41,547 nt of DNA from a virus: the IMG/VR virus record IMGVR_UViG_3300045988_165964, positions 1-41,547 of that record; one strand, given 5' to 3'. Made by a program: the position numbers and the translations under genes. The notes below the pieces were generated by a model. That model made no database searches. It worked only from the letters and a program-made list of their open reading frames with translations, and had not been told where the DNA came from. Position 1 is the first letter of the stretch. Every line of letters starts with the position of its first letter. This document shows, in pieces, positions 12,810-38,681 of this stretch.

Positions 12810-14543
12810 ATGGCAATAAGAATTTTAACTAAAAACGGAGTTGAAAATACCAATATTGACGGTGCAAGAGATTGTAATTTCAATGCTGGTAATCGTGATG
12901 GTATTGTTAAAAGCGTACTCAAAGAGGGAAACTTCTTTTTGTCTTCTTCGAATGTAATTGCTCTTGATACCTGTGAGCTCCGTATATTCGGTCATAGAAT
13001 AGTTATAGACACTATTCAATACAAAACATTTTCTTCCGTCCCGACTACCCCTATACGCTATGCTCTTATAGGACAAATCATTATGACGGAGACTGTACCG
13101 TCTTTCTCCCTCATTGTTCAGTATGCTGAAAAGATACTGCAGAAAGATAACATCAATAATGGAAATGGGACTTACGAGGTTGAAATCGGAAGATTTACAC
13201 TTCAACCGAACGGAACGATTGTAGACCTTGTTCGTACCCTTGACATTATAACAGGCGGAACAGGGTCAGGAGACGGGAGCGGTCTTGAAATTGGTACGGT
13301 TACAACCAATACTCTTGCTGCGGGTTTAGATGCAGAAGTAGACATTGAAAATCGCTATGATGAGGAAAAGGGTAAAACCGTAACAGACTTTACATTCAGT
13401 ATTCCTCAGGGTGAGTCTCCTGATATAGCTACAAGTACTTTGAATGCTCTTGAGGCTAAACTCAATGAGAATATAGTCAAAGATCCGAGTAAGACTTATC
13501 TTACATGGCAAGGAGCAAGTTTCCCCTCTCCAGAAACAACTTTTACAGCTCCTGCTGGCTCAGTTATTGACTGGGGTGATGGTTCGGTTCAGACTTTTAC
13601 GATAGCAAGTACAACAACGCACTCTTACACAGATGGAATAGAATATCATTTGATATCTATTAAAGGATTGACTTCTATAGATGATAGTATGTTTATGAGT
13701 CAATCTGAACTCATAAGCATAACTCTTGGAAATGAAATAACTACACTCTATTTCAGTGCTTTTGAGTTTTGTTCAAATCTTATAAGTGTGATACTTCCAA
13801 ATAGCCTAACAGTCATCAATGGCTCAGCGTTTGCGAGTTGTTCAAAACTTATAGATATAAATATTCCTATAAGTGTGACTCATATTGGCAATTATGCTTT
13901 TGAATACTGCTCTGCTCTTACAAATATAGTGATTCCTGATAGTGTTACGGCTCTTGGGAGTCAAGTATTTAGAAATTGTAGTGGTCTTATTGAAGTTACA
14001 ATTCCAAAAAAACTTGCCACAATTCCGGCTGCAACTTTCATTGCTTGTAGCAGCCTTGAAACTATCCATGTTCGTAGGTCTAAGCCTGGTACACTTGGGG
14101 AAGATGCTATTCCTACTACGATTAAAAAGATTATTGTACCAAAAGCAAAAATAGCAGACTATAAGGCTGCTGCTGTATGGTCTACCTATGCTGATAAAAT
14201 TGTTTATGAAGTAGACAGTAGTGATTTATCGAGCGGTGGAAAGATTTACAGACACTTACTAAAATGTTCGAATTATAATAATGATAAGAGCTATAATATA
14301 GTAGCCTATTCATCTAAAAGTGATGCTATAACCAGTGACTATGTTTTGGCGAACCAAAATTGCCTGGTTGGGGCTATAAGTTCGGTATATAGTAATAACG
14401 AAGGAACGGTTATTTTCGATAGATTGATTACAGGTGTTGACCCTCATGGTCCTCCAGGAGGATATTTCGGAATCCAGGCAGGAGCAGGATTTCCGACTAC
14501 TGAATATATTAAAATTGAATCCGATTCATTCGCAGCATTATAA
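12810..14543 (+). CDS. receptor-binding tail fibre with BspA-type leucine-rich repeats
   Basis: 577 aa. Fibre collar motif (GGTGSGDGSGLEIGTVTT...FTFSIPQGESPD) and IDWGDGS. About six ~23-aa repeats of the type AFxxCSxLxxIxIPxSVTxIG lie at aa ~286-445 (nt ~13665-14144). Confidence 0.75.
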   Translation: MAIRILTKNGVENTNIDGARDCNFNAGNRDGIVKSVLKEGNFFLSSSNVIALDTCELRIFGHRIVIDTIQYKTFSSVPTTPIRYALIGQIIMTETVPSFSLIVQYAEKILQKDNINNGNGTYEVEIGRFTLQPNGTIVDLVRTLDIITGGTGSGDGSGLEIGTVTTNTLAAGLDAEVDIENRYDEEKGKTVTDFTFSIPQGESPDIATSTLNALEAKLNENIVKDPSKTYLTWQGASFPSPETTFTAPAGSVIDWGDGSVQTFTIASTTTHSYTDGIEYHLISIKGLTSIDDSMFMSQSELISITLGNEITTLYFSAFEFCSNLISVILPNSLTVINGSAFASCSKLIDINIPISVTHIGNYAFEYCSALTNIVIPDSVTALGSQVFRNCSGLIEVTIPKKLATIPAATFIACSSLETIHVRRSKPGTLGEDAIPTTIKKIIVPKAKIADYKAAAVWSTYADKIVYEVDSSDLSSGGKIYRHLLKCSNYNNDKSYNIVAYSSKSDAITSDYVLANQNCLVGAISSVYSNNEGTVIFDRLITGVDPHGPPGGYFGIQAGAGFPTTEYIKIESDSFAAL

Positions 14544-19948: not shown

Positions 19949-20268
19949 TTTGCCTCCTTGGTAAGTTCAATAGAAGTTAGATCTATCTGTTCAAGATTGG
20001 TGATACTCTCATAGAGAAGATCTACAAGAGCTGTTGCCCATTCGCCGATATCTTTGAAACCCTTTTTTCTGACTTCATTCTTGAATTTATGAATCGTGTC
20101 TTTATCTCGGAGTTCTCGGTGAGAAACCGTACACAATACCCTATACAGGGACATGCCTGTTTTTTCCTTGATCTTAGCAATAGCCTCTCTATGATCTTCT
20201 GGAATATAACAGATATGCGGATTCTCTCTCGGAGCCGAGATTTTAATTTTGTTTTTCTTTTCGTACAC
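19945..20268 (-). CDS. hypothetical protein
   Basis: 107 aa, GTG start 9 nt after GGGAGG. Confidence 0.5.
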   Translation of the reverse strand: MYEKKNKIKISAPRENPHICYIPEDHREAIAKIKEKTGMSLYRVLCTVSHRELRDKDTIHKFKNEVRKKGFKDIGEWATALVDLLYESITNLEQIDLTSIELTKEAK

Positions 20269-21070
20269 GCTCGTTTACCTCCCACAAGGCTTTTAACAAA
20301 GTATTCTTCGGTTCTGCTCCGTTAAGAATAGCCTCAATTTCTTCTTTACCTCCGTCTGTATAGTCCCATCCTCTTTCATCGAAATCATAGTCAGCAGAGT
20401 ATTCTACATTTTTATCCCAGTGTCTTTCATAAAGATGAAGATCACCAACAGTATGATAATACAATCCGGCAGGAAGACCGACTTCTTTGGCAACGATTTG
20501 TAATAAAACCGTGAAGAATCCCATATCATACGGCAACCCAAGCCATATGTCGTTTGACCGCATATAAGTGTGAAGATTGAGCTTACCGTTAAAGCAAGTA
20601 AATTGCAACAAGCAAGTACACGGTGTGTCTTTTGTCGGTTTATTGCTTGCTTCTTTAATATGTAATATGCACTGACGATCGTATGGATTCTTCTTGAGTT
20701 TATCTATACAATACTGTAATTGGTCAAACCCGAATTTATGGAAAATTCTGTAACCATAAGCAGAGTTCACGGTTTCACCATCATCAGATAAGTCATACCA
20801 CATTTTGGCATATTTGCCGATATCTTCAACCTTGTTAGATCCGCTGAGATACCACTGTATTTCACCAACAAGGTATCTAAGGCTCAAATTTCTTTGAGGG
20901 TTGAGACATACATTATGATAAGGGTTTGAAACGAGAAAAGTGATATCTGTAACATGTTTGGTTTTTCCGATACGGCTTACAACGGTTTCACCGAAGTCAG
21001 AAACAAAATTATAGGCTCTCTCAAAAGCATCTGTAACCGTATCACACGGAATTGTAGGAATCATAAGCAT
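20243..21070 (-). CDS. thymidylate-synthase-family deoxypyrimidine hydroxymethylase, predicted dCMP-specific
   Basis: Gapless match to ThyA over the core: NPYDRQCIL, TPCTCLLQF (Cys151), MRSNDIWLGLPYD, GDLHLYERH. Asp182 (codon 20525-20527) replaces the dUMP-specifying Asn. MRSND, PCT and NSAYGY resemble T4 dCMP hydroxymethylase, and the ThyA C-terminal tail is absent. Confidence 0.75.
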   Translation of the reverse strand: MLMIPTIPCDTVTDAFERAYNFVSDFGETVVSRIGKTKHVTDITFLVSNPYHNVCLNPQRNLSLRYLVGEIQWYLSGSNKVEDIGKYAKMWYDLSDDGETVNSAYGYRIFHKFGFDQLQYCIDKLKKNPYDRQCILHIKEASNKPTKDTPCTCLLQFTCFNGKLNLHTYMRSNDIWLGLPYDMGFFTVLLQIVAKEVGLPAGLYYHTVGDLHLYERHWDKNVEYSADYDFDERGWDYTDGGKEEIEAILNGAEPKNTLLKALWEVNERVRKEKQN

Positions 21071-24144: not shown

Positions 24145-24714
24145 TTAGTTTACTCCGTAATGATTATAAAGATCTGAAAGCAATTGTCTTGAAGATATTC
24201 GAATACAACAACATCCAGACTTTGTCAGATTGTTGAAAGAGTTATCAATTTGTCGTACCCTGCTACGGGTATTGTTCTCGTTCAATGGCTTGGTATTTCC
24301 TGCTTGAAGTCTTCTATTTTTTATATTCTCAATACATTTTTCGATAGGGGTATCAAGATAATAAAACACTGTATTTGCTTGAGGAGAAATACGGTTAGAA
24401 AAGTTAGACCATCTTGAAGATAGAGTAGAAACTAAAAGACCCTCAAAAATGACATTGTAACCGCCATTGAGAAGAGTTTGTATTCTTTCTTCAATCTCAT
24501 CTTGAGATCTAACCGTATCACATCCTCCACAAGCATTGTAATATGAGCCTACAATTGCCCAGCCATTTCTGGAATTGTAATATCCGAGTATTTTTCCGGA
24601 AGAGTCTTTCCACTCATTCCAATCTTCTAATGAAAGAAGTTGATGAATAATGTAAGATTTACCACTTCCGGAAGTTCCTCGTATATTTATAACAATTTGC
24701 TTAGAATGTTCCAT
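24145..24714 (-). CDS. small P-loop kinase (candidate DNA 5-hydroxymethylpyrimidine kinase)
   Basis: 189 aa. Walker A GTSGSGKS (24655-24678) and Walker B-like VIFEG. The role assignment rests on gene context. Confidence 0.5.
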   Translation of the reverse strand: MEHSKQIVINIRGTSGSGKSYIIHQLLSLEDWNEWKDSSGKILGYYNSRNGWAIVGSYYNACGGCDTVRSQDEIEERIQTLLNGGYNVIFEGLLVSTLSSRWSNFSNRISPQANTVFYYLDTPIEKCIENIKNRRLQAGNTKPLNENNTRSRVRQIDNSFNNLTKSGCCCIRISSRQLLSDLYNHYGVN

Positions 24715-25660
24715 ATGTTACAAATTCCTTATATTTCTCTTTACGAATACCTTTCCAACCGTTTAATTCTCCCAAAATCTCATGAGGGACATTTTTATAT
24801 CTAATCTCAAATAATTGATTCCATATGTAATCAAATTCAGGAAGAACTTTCTTGTAAGTATTTAATTCTTGTAATCTTCTGTCTGTATAATATTCCAGAT
24901 ATCTAATTTGTTTATACAATTTGAAATAGCTACATAAATATCCTACAATTCTTGCAAAGTTTGTCTTATATCCCAATTTATTCTCTGTATAGATTATTAT
25001 TTGTTGTAAGAGATATTCTAATTCTTTTATTTCTGATTTAGTGAGATTTCTACCTTGTTTTCTGATTTCATAAGCCAAATCATCACGATAAGAAATAACA
25101 AAGATAGATTGTGCACAGGTCTTGCAAGAATTCCAATCAAGATATGCTTCAGGAGTTAGGTCTAACCCCAAAAAATTATAAACAGATTCCATAAACAATA
25201 GAGCTGAAAATCTTCCACAGTAATAAATTGAAGTAAACCAATTATACAAAGCCGTTTGAGATTGATTTATCAAAGACATAATGACTTCATATTGCGAACG
25301 GTTATCAATTTTATTTTGATAAGAAGATACAATTGAAACAAACTTATCATTTTGTTTTACCCAGCGTCTGTCCGATTGAAATATCAATCTATCTTTATAG
25401 ATATTCCAAAATTCAGTCAATTTATCAATTGTTGCATCTTTGATTGAGGGAAATATTCGTAATAGTAAAGCTGATGTTGTTACAGAGTAACATGTCGAAT
25501 ACAAAAAAGATGCCCATATCTTAGACTCATTGTCATTACCTTGACAAAAATGTAAAAGATTATCCTCATCCCTGTCGTTTTGATTTTTTCGCTTAGAATA
25601 AAATCTCACAAACATATCTATTCGAAAACTCTTGTAATCATCATTAGGAATATTGTACAT
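24701..25660 (-). CDS. large helical protein, candidate aGPT-Pplase-like base transferase
   Basis: 319 aa, translationally coupled to the P-loop kinase gene. Assignment by context and vague motif memory only. Confidence 0.35.
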   Translation of the reverse strand: MYNIPNDDYKSFRIDMFVRFYSKRKNQNDRDEDNLLHFCQGNDNESKIWASFLYSTCYSVTTSALLLRIFPSIKDATIDKLTEFWNIYKDRLIFQSDRRWVKQNDKFVSIVSSYQNKIDNRSQYEVIMSLINQSQTALYNWFTSIYYCGRFSALLFMESVYNFLGLDLTPEAYLDWNSCKTCAQSIFVISYRDDLAYEIRKQGRNLTKSEIKELEYLLQQIIIYTENKLGYKTNFARIVGYLCSYFKLYKQIRYLEYYTDRRLQELNTYKKVLPEFDYIWNQLFEIRYKNVPHEILGELNGWKGIRKEKYKEFVTYGTF

Positions 25661-25664
25661 GTTA

Positions 25665-26249
25665 TTATTTCATCCACGGAGGAAGATTACCCTGAGGAGC
25701 GTTGTTAGCAGGAGCAGCTTTTTGCATCCACGGAGGAAGATTACCCTGAGGTGCTTGAGTAGCCTGAGGAATTTCCTGCTGAATCGGTTGAGGCTGTACA
25801 GGAGCGGGAGCTACGGGTTGCTGAGGCATAACCTGTTGAACAGGAGTTTCAACCGCAGGAGCAGTATACGGAGCCTCAGCCGTGGTATTTGCCAGTTTCG
25901 ATACTCTGGTAATAACTTGCTTGGTGTTATCGTTTAAGTCGGGTTCTACGGTTATCTGACAGGTTTTACCGATGATAGCCTTGGTGTTCAGTTTGATTCT
26001 TCCCTCACAAGGGATGCCGATACATTCAAGAAAACCTTTGACTTTCCACAAAGCCTGAGGAAGAAGATTGTACCACATTTTACGGGTTGCTCCGTCAGCG
26101 GTTTCAAAGGTTACTTCGAGTTGATCCGAGCCTGTAGATGCTTTGCTGAATTGAGCATCTTTTACTCTTACCGTGTGAATTCCTTCCGGAATGTAGTTAG
26201 TGCTTTCGACTCCTGTGAAGTCAAGATCCATAACAGAATAATTTGCCAT
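25665..26249 (-). CDS. DUF669-like ssDNA-binding protein with P/Q-rich tail
   Basis: 194 aa, SD AAGGAGA. Lies downstream of a Sak4-like ATPase. The N-terminal OB-size domain is followed by a low-complexity PQ tail ending in a duplicated APQGNLPPWM motif. Confidence 0.6.
   Translation of the reverse strand: MANYSVMDLDFTGVESTNYIPEGIHTVRVKDAQFSKASTGSDQLEVTFETADGATRKMWYNLLPQALWKVKGFLECIGIPCEGRIKLNTKAIIGKTCQITVEPDLNDNTKQVITRVSKLANTTAEAPYTAPAVETPVQQVMPQQPVAPAPVQPQPIQQEIPQATQAPQGNLPPWMQKAAPANNAPQGNLPPWMK
25671..25751 (-). repeat. 27-bp direct repeat x2 (period 54 bp) encoding PQGNLPPWM twice
   Basis: CATCCACGGAGGAAGATTACCCTGAGG occurs at 25671-25697 and 25725-25751, identical copies. Confidence 0.95.
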
Positions 26250-34747: not shown

Positions 34748-34907
34748 AAGGAAATTTCCTCCTTTTTATACTATTCGTCAATTCACGAACATAACATTGG
34801 TAGTAATCTTTCTTCTTGCAAAGATATATACAATCATAACAACTATTACAACCTTTACGATCACGAATAACTCTTACACCATGTTTATACACTTGTATTG
34901 ATTTCAT
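34704..34907 (-). CDS. small Cys-rich protein
   Basis: 67 aa, SD GGGAGG, ATGA overlap with the MazG-like stop. Contains CNSCYDCIYLC...C. Confidence 0.5.
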   Translation of the reverse strand: MKSIQVYKHGVRVIRDRKGCNSCYDCIYLCKKKDYYQCYVRELTNSIKRRKFPYDNTTCEDFESKEQ

Positions 34908-35380
34908 TTGTTTCCTCCCAAATAGCGTTGTTTGGTTCTCAGAGCTTTTTTGTCTATAATATCAGAGAGCTCCTCAGCCGTAAAGTTGAAAATTTGACAT
35001 AAGTACTGACACATAAATAAAACATCTGCCAACTCCTCTTTTATATCATTTTTACTTGCTTCGGCAAAAGCATTCTCACGGTTATATAGACGAGTTCTAC
35101 GCTCTTTTACAAGAGCTTTCGTAAGTTCAGACATCTCTTCTATACAAACATCTATCTGACTGTCTTTGCCGTATTTTTTAATCATTTCTTCAATCACTTG
35201 TTCAGGCTTGAAGACTTTATAGTCATATTCAGCTTTTGCTTTACGATACAAAAACCGAGCGGACATTTCGTCATATGTACTATAAATGTAATACTGGTTA
35301 TTTGAATCCATAGTGATTACTTGAAAGAAATCACGCTCCCCATCATATTTGGGTATTTGATGAAATATAGGTTCTCTCAT
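34904..35380 (-). CDS. MazG-like nucleoside triphosphate pyrophosphohydrolase
   Basis: 158 aa. EEMSELTKAL ... EELADVLFM matches the EExxE...ExxD MazG signature. Confidence 0.7.
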   Translation of the reverse strand: MREPIFHQIPKYDGERDFFQVITMDSNNQYYIYSTYDEMSARFLYRKAKAEYDYKVFKPEQVIEEMIKKYGKDSQIDVCIEEMSELTKALVKERRTRLYNRENAFAEASKNDIKEELADVLFMCQYLCQIFNFTAEELSDIIDKKALRTKQRYLGGNK

Positions 35381-37411: not shown

Positions 37412-37976
37412 CGTCTCCCTCCAGATATAGTTTTTGTATACTAACTTCATGCAAGCCAAAGAGTTTATCACTGTCAGCTCGTTTGAAGTATCGTTTTTGA
37501 AGTCTACCCTCAATTCTTATATTTGTACCGTTGGGAACATTCTCTAACCGTTTAGCAATTATTCCCCAAGCGATGGTAGAAATATAAGCTGTAGAGTATT
37601 CGGTTTTTACCTTAAGAATAAAATCATTGATGGTTCTTCCCAACGGAGTACACCTTACAGGAGTCTTATCTTCAATAGTGCCTATGAGATTCACCTCATT
37701 ATGTTCTATTGGTTGCATGAGATGTTTAATTCCTATCGCTTTGATATAGGTTTTCTTCTTAGGATAGGAATCAGTCCCGATTGTTCTCAATTCTCCCTCT
37801 ATACTGTAATATTCCAACGGGTGAATATCATTCTGCCAAGTTTGAAATATGAGAATATCAACTACTCCAGACTTTCGCTCAACCGCAATAGTTCCCTCAT
37901 ACATCTTGATACTTATATTGATTTCATGAGAAAATGAAATACTTCTCACCATGCCTGCTACTTGAATATGATTCAT
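37383..37976 (-). CDS. ssDNA-binding protein, tandem OB-fold type
   Basis: 197 aa. The second half (NEVNLIGTIEDKTPVRCTPLGRTINDFILKV...IAWGIIAKRLENVPNGTNIRIEGRLQKRYF) follows the SSB OB pattern and the first half repeats it loosely. No acidic tail. Confidence 0.6.
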   Translation of the reverse strand: MNHIQVAGMVRSISFSHEINISIKMYEGTIAVERKSGVVDILIFQTWQNDIHPLEYYSIEGELRTIGTDSYPKKKTYIKAIGIKHLMQPIEHNEVNLIGTIEDKTPVRCTPLGRTINDFILKVKTEYSTAYISTIAWGIIAKRLENVPNGTNIRIEGRLQKRYFKRADSDKLFGLHEVSIQKLYLEGDDGYLQIKNI

Positions 37977-38512
37977 TGTAAAACATCCTCCATATGTTTT
38001 TGAAATTTTTCTTTGAATTTTTTAAGACTACGACTCACTCGAGATTGTGGAATGTTCAAAAAAGCTCCGATTTCGTTTTGAGTGTAACCTTGTATGACTT
38101 TTTCTATCAGCGGTTTATAATAGTCAGGAAAGTCTTCAAGAGTCCTACTGATTACATCAAGAGTATCTTTTTTAGAGTATTCATCCGGAACAGAAAGTGT
38201 ATCCATCAAACTCATTTCATTCCCCTCTTTGTCTTCCGCTATGATTGATTCTATAGGAATTGTGCAAGGTTGCCTATTCATCTTACGGCTTATGTAGGAT
38301 ACCATACCATTGTAAATTGAAAGTACTGCATATGTAGAAAAAGTAAAACTGTATTCTTCTTTGAAATTCAGACAAGCTCGCCATAGAGCAAACATTCCCT
38401 CCTGAATCAAATCTTCTTTACACTGATTGTTTTTAGAGCTTGAAGAAAATCGTCTCATAAATACATAGTATACAAGTCGCTTATTTTCCTCAAAGCGTTG
38501 CTCGGGGTTCAT
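37973..38512 (-). CDS. sigma-70-family RNA polymerase sigma factor
   Basis: Region 2 DLIQEGMFALWRA...FSTYAVLSIYNGM and region 4 HTH GYTQNEIGAFLNIPQSRVSRSLKK. ATG at 38512 lies 6 nt after AAGGAGG. Confidence 0.8.
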   Translation of the reverse strand: MNPEQRFEENKRLVYYVFMRRFSSSSKNNQCKEDLIQEGMFALWRACLNFKEEYSFTFSTYAVLSIYNGMVSYISRKMNRQPCTIPIESIIAEDKEGNEMSLMDTLSVPDEYSKKDTLDVISRTLEDFPDYYKPLIEKVIQGYTQNEIGAFLNIPQSRVSRSLKKFKEKFQKHMEDVLQ

Positions 38513-38681
38513 TATCATCCTCCTTGAATTTACATTCACCTGTACATTGAATTACAGGAATAGTACAAGTCAAGCATTTATCTCTACCTTTCGCGCATAT
38601 TCCCTTTTTCGGTTTTGCTCGACGATATTCTTTTCGCCAGACCTTTACCACTCCTGTATTATCAAACCATTTTGTCCTCAT
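38490..38681 (-). CDS. small basic Cys-containing protein
   Basis: 63 aa, SD GGAGGAAAC. First gene after promoter P3. Confidence 0.55.
   Translation of the reverse strand: MRTKWFDNTGVVKVWRKEYRRAKPKKGICAKGRDKCLTCTIPVIQCTGECKFKEDDNEPRATL

Follow-up and report, generated by a model that had tools for sequence, protein, structure and literature searches.

Which pyrimidine does a phage modify when it combines the enzymes of thymidine hypermodification with a hydroxymethylase of the cytosine type? The question is raised by a 41,547-nucleotide (nt) stretch of viral DNA (IMG/VR record IMGVR_UViG_3300045988_165964, positions 1 to 41,547; here called the window), which is the nearly complete genome (about 41.5 kb) of a phage. 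It carries an overlapping pair of genes for a 319-amino-acid (aa) protein and a 189-aa P-loop kinase, which an earlier reading of the bare letters (the sequence-only reading) had put forward as a transferase and a DNA hydroxymethylpyrimidine kinase acting on either 5-hydroxymethylcytosine (hmC) or 5-hydroxymethyluracil (hmU). Hypermodification of thymidine by 5-hydroxymethyldeoxyuridine (5-hmdU) DNA kinases (5-HMUDKs) and amino acid:DNA transferases (AADTs) is a recently solved pathway whose enzymes are used as tools, and 5-HMUDK is sold for hmU mapping. The window locus and 11 relatives join this machinery to a cytosine-type hydroxymethylase, and either outcome as to the base would be new. 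The comparisons described here support the view that the pair is a divergent member of the 5-HMUDK/AADT system, working in a variant pathway that would start from such a hydroxymethylase.

Both genes lie on the minus strand, and the ATG of the kinase gene (24714-24712) falls 14 nt within the 3' end of the 319-aa gene (minus-strand text ...ACATATGGAACATTCTAA), so that the sequence-only reading was right to place the kinase start inside its neighbor. The distance from the P-loop to the N terminus equals that in PaMx11 gp49, a kinase likewise of 189 aa, and the start codon, and with it the overlap, is therefore credible. Because homologues of both proteins reach E = 1e-120 or better, the two open reading frames are real genes and not chance occurrences. 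Of 12 related loci that have the Asp-type thymidylate synthase (TS) homologue described below, 11 show the same order of AADT then kinase, the two genes overlapping by 4 to 32 nt, and so do more distant loci (the overlap is kept in L004, L011, L012, L014-L021, L023, L024, L027, and L052; L numbers are our handles for loci). This overlap makes translational coupling of the two genes a putative feature of the system. Two other arrangements were seen. One 317-aa protein (P0013), from a relative with a contig of 41,724 bp, has precomputed Pfam matches to both PF18748 and PF18724 in a single product and could be a kinase-AADT fusion or a frameshift across the overlap. At L013 (1-3327), a gene resembling the 297-aa glycosyltransferase gene of the window stands between AADT and kinase and another stands ahead of AADT, an arrangement suggestive of glycosylation being functionally linked to the kinase/transferase step.

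The 189-aa protein matches the Pfam 5-hmdU DNA kinase family, PF18748, over residues 10-138 at 34.4 bits (gathering cutoff, 27), whereas its matches to dNK and AAA_33 are weak and lie under their Pfam cutoffs. It is 33% identical over its full length (E = 2e-28) to PaMx11 gp49, which is among the 5-hmdU DNA kinases that have been listed, purified, and biochemically validated (PMC8989533). All of the family invariants are kept (G13, G16, G18, K19, G56, Y58, G63, G64, D66, E91, G92, P123, and R134), and an alignment of 13 sequences, PaMx11 gp49 among them, shows the Walker A motif GTSGSGKS, the stretch ACGGCDT (GGxD), EG, and R134 to be invariant. Such kinases are genomically linked to an AADT, to a clade 1 helical protein, and to a pyrimidine hydroxymethylase, and the window encodes all three. 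For neither the kinase nor the clade 1 protein did a PDB search find a relative of solved structure. The 189-aa protein is, from these similarities, very likely a P-loop kinase of the 5-HMUDK family that acts on a hydroxymethylpyrimidine in DNA.

A different identity is implied by the databases, in that homologues of the kinase are labeled “terminase small subunit” in PHROG 800 and in several RefSeq records. If the label were taken at face value, or if the subthreshold dNK and AAA_33 matches were, the 189-aa protein would be a small terminase subunit or a kinase of free nucleotides, and the helical protein would be unrelated to base modification. We consider this very improbable. The label is erroneous, as shown by the fact that the validated kinase PaMx11 gp49 is itself so labeled (NC_028770), and its occurrence on this family in PHROG 800 and many RefSeq records is a systematic misannotation. 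Moreover, the window has a terminase module of its own (69-2218) and a separate deoxynucleoside monophosphate (dNMP) kinase (Table 1), and the fold and profile evidence that the helical protein is an AADT is strong.

That evidence is as follows. The 319-aa protein matches Pfam PF18724 (ADDT) at 31 bits (cutoff, 26.2), covering residues 29-174 only. PF18724 is aGPT-Pplase clade 2 renamed; a ViI-like phage record annotates a homologue under that name, and amino acid:DNA transferases and clade 2 aGPT-Pplases have been equated (PMC8989533). A profile of 48 AADT sequences aligns at full length with an orthologue of ViI gp247 (hhalign, 99.6%; E = 4.5e-24; 275 columns), gp247 being the serine:DNA transferase. 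In this alignment Cys falls on Cys: C243 of the window protein, which is invariant in the 48 homologues, is matched with the ViI orthologue residue equivalent to PaMx11 C247. An AlphaFold2 model computed from 48 homologues is all-helical (mean pLDDT, 94.9; pTM, 0.90), and its unique top Foldseek match in the PDB is 8z2n, PaMx11 gp46 or PUGT (probability, 1.00; TM, 0.51-0.56; E value, only 0.04), followed by distant HhH DNA glycosylases at a TM of about 0.3. PUGT has no detectable sequence similarity to the window protein: it was not reached by single-sequence or HMM-profile searches of the PDB, and an hhalign comparison with PaMx11 gp46 was insignificant. As a consequence, the protein is tied to the known transferases only by the fold comparison and the ViI-type profile, which, together with the PF18724 match and the invariant Cys, make it very likely an AADT (aGPT-Pplase clade 2) that would replace a phosphate with an amino acid or amine. 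The sequence-only reading had described a compact 189-aa kinase with GTSGSGKS and a helical partner of the aGPT-Pplase type, and it had suggested searches using profiles of 5-HMUDK and of aGPT-Pplase; both families were found by these searches, and the helical fold and the kinase motif both hold. The contrary outcome that it had named, a dNK- or AAA_33-type kinase beside a helical protein with no aGPT-Pplase similarity, did not arise. Among cultured phages, the closest homologue of the AADT is found in M3_0048, a 639-aa protein of the Lysinibacillus phage LysYB1 (L002, 8995-10914), of which it makes up the N-terminal half; the C-terminal ~300 aa of M3_0048, which have no counterpart in the window protein, make it an uncharacterised fusion.

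The active site of the AADT departs from that of its known relatives. In PaMx11 gp46, Cys247 is the proposed nucleophile, and a divalent metal, in contact with thymine O4, is coordinated by Glu243 and Thr244 (PMC11472151); E222, T223, and the metal are essential in the SH-Ab 15599 transferase (PMC13458397), and the Cys and the neighboring Glu are essential in M6 gp51 and ViI gp247 (PMC8989533). The Glu-Thr ligands, which lie four residues before the Cys, are essential in PaMx11, YuA, and 15599, and the Glu is essential in M6 and ViI, whereas the window protein has Val-Gly at these positions (IVGYLC). The same is true of its whole clade, in which 9 of 9 sequences read (V/I)-G-Y-(L/C)-C with no acidic residue among the preceding 10; elsewhere among the 48 homologues, ETxLC is kept in 21 and others have TSDLC or VGK(I/V)C. 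Judged by these motifs, the clade would either use another mechanism or be able to dispense with the dyad.

The clade 1 helical protein (Pfam HMUDK_hel), encoded about 6 kb upstream of the pair on the same strand, also belongs, by its sequence, to the kinase/AADT system (23% identity to PaMx11 gp50; E = 9e-18). Its counterpart in M6, gp55, was dispensable in lysate reconstitutions (PMC8989533). With the established 5-HMUDKs (PaMx11 gp49, M6 gp54, ViI gp67, and SP10 gp186N; Lee et al. 2018, 2021), then, the window kinase has in common PF18748 and genomic linkage to the three partners named above. It differs from them in gene order, since the classical module runs kinase-clade 1-TS whereas the window kinase overlaps the AADT and lies 6 kb from the clade 1 gene, and it differs from them further in having Trp in place of an aliphatic residue or Phe at position 52 and in being accompanied by a synthase of the Asp (dCMP) type.

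This synthase, a TS homologue encoded in the same operon, is what makes the target base a question. Alignments place its KDTPC, RSND, and PYD motifs at E. coli ThyA positions L143, D169, and N177, respectively, which, with the catalytic Cys146 in second place, gives a residue code of D-C-D-D, that of the 5-hydroxymethyl-dCMP (5hm-dCMP) synthase T4 gp42, and not the code of an Asn-type (dUMP) hydroxymethylase. The positions have been calibrated experimentally: N177D leads to dCMP as the substrate, an acidic residue at 143 leads to hydroxymethyl rather than methyl transfer, and D169N marks 5-hydroxy-dCMP synthases (bioRxiv 10.1101/2025.06.16.659550). Because its code equals that of gp42, the TS homologue is predicted to make 5hm-dCMP. 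A 5-hydroxy-dCMP synthase of the arabinosyl-5hoC pathway was also considered and was rejected, as Asp169 is retained. The code D-C-D-N is found in the dUMP hydroxymethylases of PaMx11 and SP10 and in the TS homologues of LysYB1, Pam3, RHph_TM26, and Rhodoferax P26218 (all six cultured kinase-bearing phages have an Asn-type TS). We took a census of 17 IMG/VR loci found via the AADT profile, plus L004 and the window. Twelve of these contain a TS gene in addition to the pair, and in each of the 12 its code is D-C-D-D, although they span four AADT motif classes; by contrast, among 80 loci found via the clade 1 protein, the 48 adjacent TS genes encode D-C-D-N or A-C-D-N and none is of the Asp type. 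By this predicted 5hm-dCMP-type TS, the group differs from all of the thymidine-hypermodifying phages characterised so far. The A-C-D-N code, with Ala at the position of ThyA L143, occurs beside the clade 1 helical protein in four virome loci (L097-L100) and falls outside the published rule, in which a hydrophobic residue means methyl and an acidic one hydroxymethyl.

Could the TS homologue nevertheless hydroxymethylate dUMP despite its Asp, so that the locus would be an ordinary thymidine cassette in which a dCMP deaminase yields dUMP and the TS homologue then yields hm-dUMP? Judged by overall similarity, PaMx11 gp51 (E = 9e-31) is a nearer relative of the protein than is T4 gp42 (E = 1e-16), the phage has a deaminase that would supply the dUMP, and a residue code predicts a substrate but does not measure one. 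We nonetheless find this reading improbable, given that the N177D rule has a mechanistic grounding in addition to its experimental calibration and that the window TS and gp42 have PCT and MRS in common where the dUMP enzymes have PCN and NRS. Furthermore, the Asp is kept in 12 diverged loci and the Asn in 48 loci and the six cultured phages, a pattern of conservation that argues for selection for a different substrate.

If the synthase makes 5hm-dCMP, the pair could act directly on hmC in DNA, the kinase forming 5-phosphomethyl-dC and the AADT then joining cytosine to an amino acid or amine. In that case the deaminase would only supply dUMP for host dTMP synthesis, as in T4. Several observations suit this reading. 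The synthase with the 5hm-dCMP code is encoded in the same operon in 12 of 12 loci of the group, whereas the Asn-type loci are those of classical thymidine modifiers, and the near-complete genome contains no second TS homologue, TET, or C5-methyltransferase. The AADT has no Glu-Thr metal site of the kind that contacts thymine O4. At kinase position 52 (NGWAIVGSY), Trp is found in 12 of 12 kinases from Asp-type contexts, in two kinase sublineages, and F, V, L, or I in 15 of 15 from Asn-type contexts; this is the sole alignment column in which the two contexts have disjoint residues, which makes W52 a candidate specificity position. Finally, glycosyltransferases of the TET-associated type (TAGT) are interleaved in the operon, and Burke et al. 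proposed, in an untested suggestion, that such kinases phosphorylate hmC in TET contigs. We found no paper in the literature on an hmC DNA kinase or on phosphomethylcytosine. What holds us back is that, of the family members, only the commercial 5-HMUDK has been assayed on both bases, and it accepted hmU but not hmC, and that there is no demonstration of activity on hmC for any homologue. Nor does the AADT motif track the base, because two loci break the pattern: LysYB1, with an Asn-type TS, has no dyad, whereas L014, with an Asp-type TS, keeps ETALC (the idea that loss of Glu-Thr marks a switch to cytosine was rejected on these grounds). Direct action on hmC would also require a switch in specificity in the kinase, in the AADT, and possibly in the clade 1 protein, and would require it in two kinase sublineages, and the conservation of the deaminase is better explained by a deamination route. 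We therefore regard it as possible but rather unlikely.

The deaminase in question is a dCMP-deaminase-family enzyme whose PDB relatives are 2hvv, T4 Cd (1vq2), and the PBCV-1 enzyme 4p9c, and by these relationships it is a deaminase of the mononucleotide (dCMP) type. Its subfamily lies within 1.4 kb of the clade 1 gene in 14 of 14 loci anchored on window-like members of the helical subfamily, and it stands within that distance in the window, L011, L012, and L019 as well. It occurs in at least 9 of the 12 Asp-type contigs as opposed to 1 of 48 Asn-type loci. The canonical dCMP deaminase motif is H-A-E; members of this subfamily have H-S-E and a conserved CKE-x-GCLR...GDNSK-x-HR stretch with extra cysteines.

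The co-occurrence of this deaminase with Asp-type synthases is one of four observations that lead us to favor a route in which hm-dCMP is deaminated to hm-dUMP and the kinase/transferase pair acts on hmU, a reading to which we give an even chance of being correct. The second is the likeness of the LysYB1 proteins: the kinase and AADT of this phage, which is of the hmU type, are 43-48% identical to those of the Asp-type loci L014-L020, so that the two families do not split by type of TS. At such a level of identity the substrate of an enzyme is usually unchanged. The third is that the deamination has precedents, in that 7 of 90 phage deaminases linked to Asp-type TS homologues gave 5-hydroxymethyldeoxyuridine from 5-hydroxymethyldeoxycytidine in vivo and such deaminases have been proposed to make dTTP from 5m-dCTP (bioRxiv 10.1101/2024.12.05.627091), and human DCTD deaminates 5hm-dCMP. 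The fourth is the restriction of the commercial 5-HMUDK to hmU.

By the deamination route, the T4-gp42-type 5hm-dCMP synthase and the dNMP kinase of the same operon would supply the hydroxymethyl base, and the deaminase would divert part of the pool of hm-dC nucleotides to hm-dU nucleotides. After replication, the 189-aa kinase would move a phosphate from ATP onto the 5-hydroxymethyl group of the pyrimidine in phage DNA, the pair and the clade 1 helical protein presumably acting on 5-hmdU like every characterised relative. The AADT would flip the base out, and Cys243, as the putative nucleophile, would attack C6; expulsion of the phosphate would then leave an exocyclic methylene to be captured by an amino acid or amine. 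The DNA might also contain hmC, on which the two glycosyltransferases of the TAGT type would act, and one of the adducts could be tailored by the radical SAM enzyme of the operon.

Some of the data weigh against deamination to hmU. The kinase and AADT genes share a transcription unit with that of the Asp-type synthase, whereas the deaminase gene is 6 kb away, and no deaminase was detected for L013, L014, or L027. The presence of the enzyme is in any case not decisive, because hmC phages such as T4 carry a dCMP deaminase too, which there only feeds dTMP synthesis. The AADT lacks the dyad whose metal touches thymine O4 in PUGT, and the W52 column perfectly separates the proteins of the Asp and Asn contexts. 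In addition, a single Asn-to-Asp change separates the two codes, so that hm-dUMP could be obtained directly and a two-step route needs a reason; one might be, for example, that both hmC and hmU are wanted.

The locus can be compared with three other systems. With the T4 hmC pathway (gp42, the gp1 dNMP kinase, Cd, and the glucosyltransferases) it has in common the identical L143D/D169/N177D code, a dNMP kinase gene next to that for the TS homologue, a dCMP deaminase, a MazG-type nucleoside triphosphatase, and candidate DNA glycosyltransferases, but T4 has neither a DNA kinase nor an AADT, its alpha- and beta-glucosyltransferases contrast with the TAGT/GT-A type of the window, and the window MazG is not detectably related to gp56. 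In the phage contigs with a C5-methyltransferase and TET (Burke et al. 2021), which encode a P-loop kinase with or without an aG/PT-PPlase, both enzyme families adjoin a source of hmC and TAGT-type glycosyltransferases, as they do here; in the window, however, the hydroxymethyl base would be made before replication by the TS homologue, with neither TET nor methyltransferase. The Xp12-like modules of modified-cytosine phages (MetaGPA; bioRxiv 10.1101/2024.12.05.627091) resemble the window in combining an N177D TS with a phage dCMP_cyt_deam_1 protein, and the logic proposed for them, deamination of a 5-substituted cytosine nucleotide to the matching uracil nucleotide, is the one that we propose for the window. 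Their TS homologues form 5m-dCMP, with dTTP as the product, whereas the window code predicts 5hm-dCMP and then hm-dU nucleotides for hypermodification, and the deaminase gene of the window is beside the clade 1 helical gene and not beside the TS gene.

If the deamination route is correct, one synthase would feed hypermodification of both pyrimidines, and the locus would show a known pathway entered by a new metabolic route. Should hmC be the substrate of the pair instead, the pair would be the first DNA kinase and transferase directed at hmC, operating via 5-phosphomethylcytosine and useful for hmC-selective labeling; a transferase lacking the metal dyad would write amino acid or amine adducts on cytosine, and the group would define a clade of phages of about 40 kb, so far from metagenomes only.

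The remaining genes of the window are divided by strand: the plus strand has those for terminase, portal, capsid, and tail, and the minus strand those for replication and modification. A closely spaced series of genes begins with the pair and continues with the GT-A-like protein, the radical SAM/SPASM enzyme, the TAGT, the dNMP kinase, the TS homologue, a 107-aa protein, and a HAD phosphatase (Table 1), and the whole cassette is conserved in L004, a relative of 57% identity. A near-identity DNA search with 12 kb of the window against 50,697 phage records gave no match, so the phage has no cultured representative among them.

Table 1. Features of the kinase/AADT locus and associated genes in the window
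Feature	Length	Position	Strand	Evidence or remark
AADT gene	319 aa	24701-25660	minus	Open reading frame list
P-loop kinase gene	189 aa	24145-24714	minus	Open reading frame list; protein begins MEHSKQIVINIRGTSGSGKS
AADT stop/kinase start overlap	14 nt	24701-24714	minus	Putative translational coupling
GT-A-type glycosyltransferase-like protein	297 aa	23249-24142	minus	PF20691 (TAGT), E = 1.4e-4, below cutoff; PHROG 842, E = 3e-11
Radical SAM/SPASM enzyme	309 aa	22354-23283	minus	PF04055 and PF13186
TAGT (TET-associated-type glycosyltransferase)	290 aa	21494-22366	minus	PF20691, 44.4 bits (cutoff, 27.5)
dNMP (thymidylate-type) kinase	149 aa	21061-21510	minus	PF02223, E = 1.3e-11; overlaps TS homologue
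Thymidylate synthase homologue		20243-21070	minus	PF00303, E = 7e-35; code L143D, C146, D169, N177D
Conserved protein after TS homologue	107 aa	19945-20268	minus	No family match; syntenic homologues in L004 and L012
BT0820-family HAD phosphatase, candidate nucleotide phosphatase	113 aa	19607-19948	minus	NCBIfam NF046079, E = 1e-30, below cutoff
Clade 1 aGPT-Pplase (HMUDK_hel)	347 aa	30927-31970	minus	PF18723, 190 bits (cutoff, 25), E = 6e-56
dCMP-deaminase-family enzyme	162 aa	30436-30924	minus	PF00383, E = 1e-15; 2 nt after clade 1 gene
MazG-type NTP pyrophosphohydrolase, candidate canonical-dNTP clearing enzyme		34904-35380	minus	PF03819, E = 6e-6

Conservation of the cassette extends in part to other loci: the GT-A-like gene adjoins the pair in L004, L012, and L013 too, the dNMP kinase is conserved in L004, L012, and L014, and 11 related loci, together with LysYB1, have the HAD phosphatase gene downstream of that for the TS homologue. 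The radical SAM enzyme was considered as a glycinyl-thymine isomerase of the M6 gp53 type, a candidate that found no support, as it has no similarity to M6 gp53 or SP10 gp185 and tblastn gave no Pseudomonas or SP10 match. Among phage proteins it is related only to the BtrN-like ones of Campylobacter phages, a kinship that hints at sugar chemistry. The MazG-type gene stands further upstream than the genes for the clade 1 helical protein and the deaminase; identification of its product as a dCTPase of the T4 gp56 type was rejected, as it has no significant similarity to gp56.

Three other proteins of the window deserve mention. A DUF669/SSB-like protein (single-stranded DNA-binding protein [SSB]-like; 25665-26249, minus strand), encoded just upstream of the AADT, has two copies of APQGNLPPWM(Q/K), 18 aa apart, at its C-terminal end, encoded by a direct DNA repeat of ~27 nt (about 25671-25697 and 25725-25751); by analogy with SSB tails, these repeats may form a partner-binding tail. 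A 577-aa protein of the tail module (12810-14543, plus strand) has BspA-type leucine-rich repeats (PF13306; E = 2e-50) and is plausibly a receptor-binding protein; these repeats and the BT0820-family match of the HAD phosphatase hint at a gut anaerobe as the host, perhaps one of the Bacteroidota or Firmicutes, for which these two proteins are the only indication. Lastly, a sigma-70-family factor with regions 2 and 4 is encoded at 37973-38539 on the minus strand, upstream of SSB and a family A DNA polymerase.

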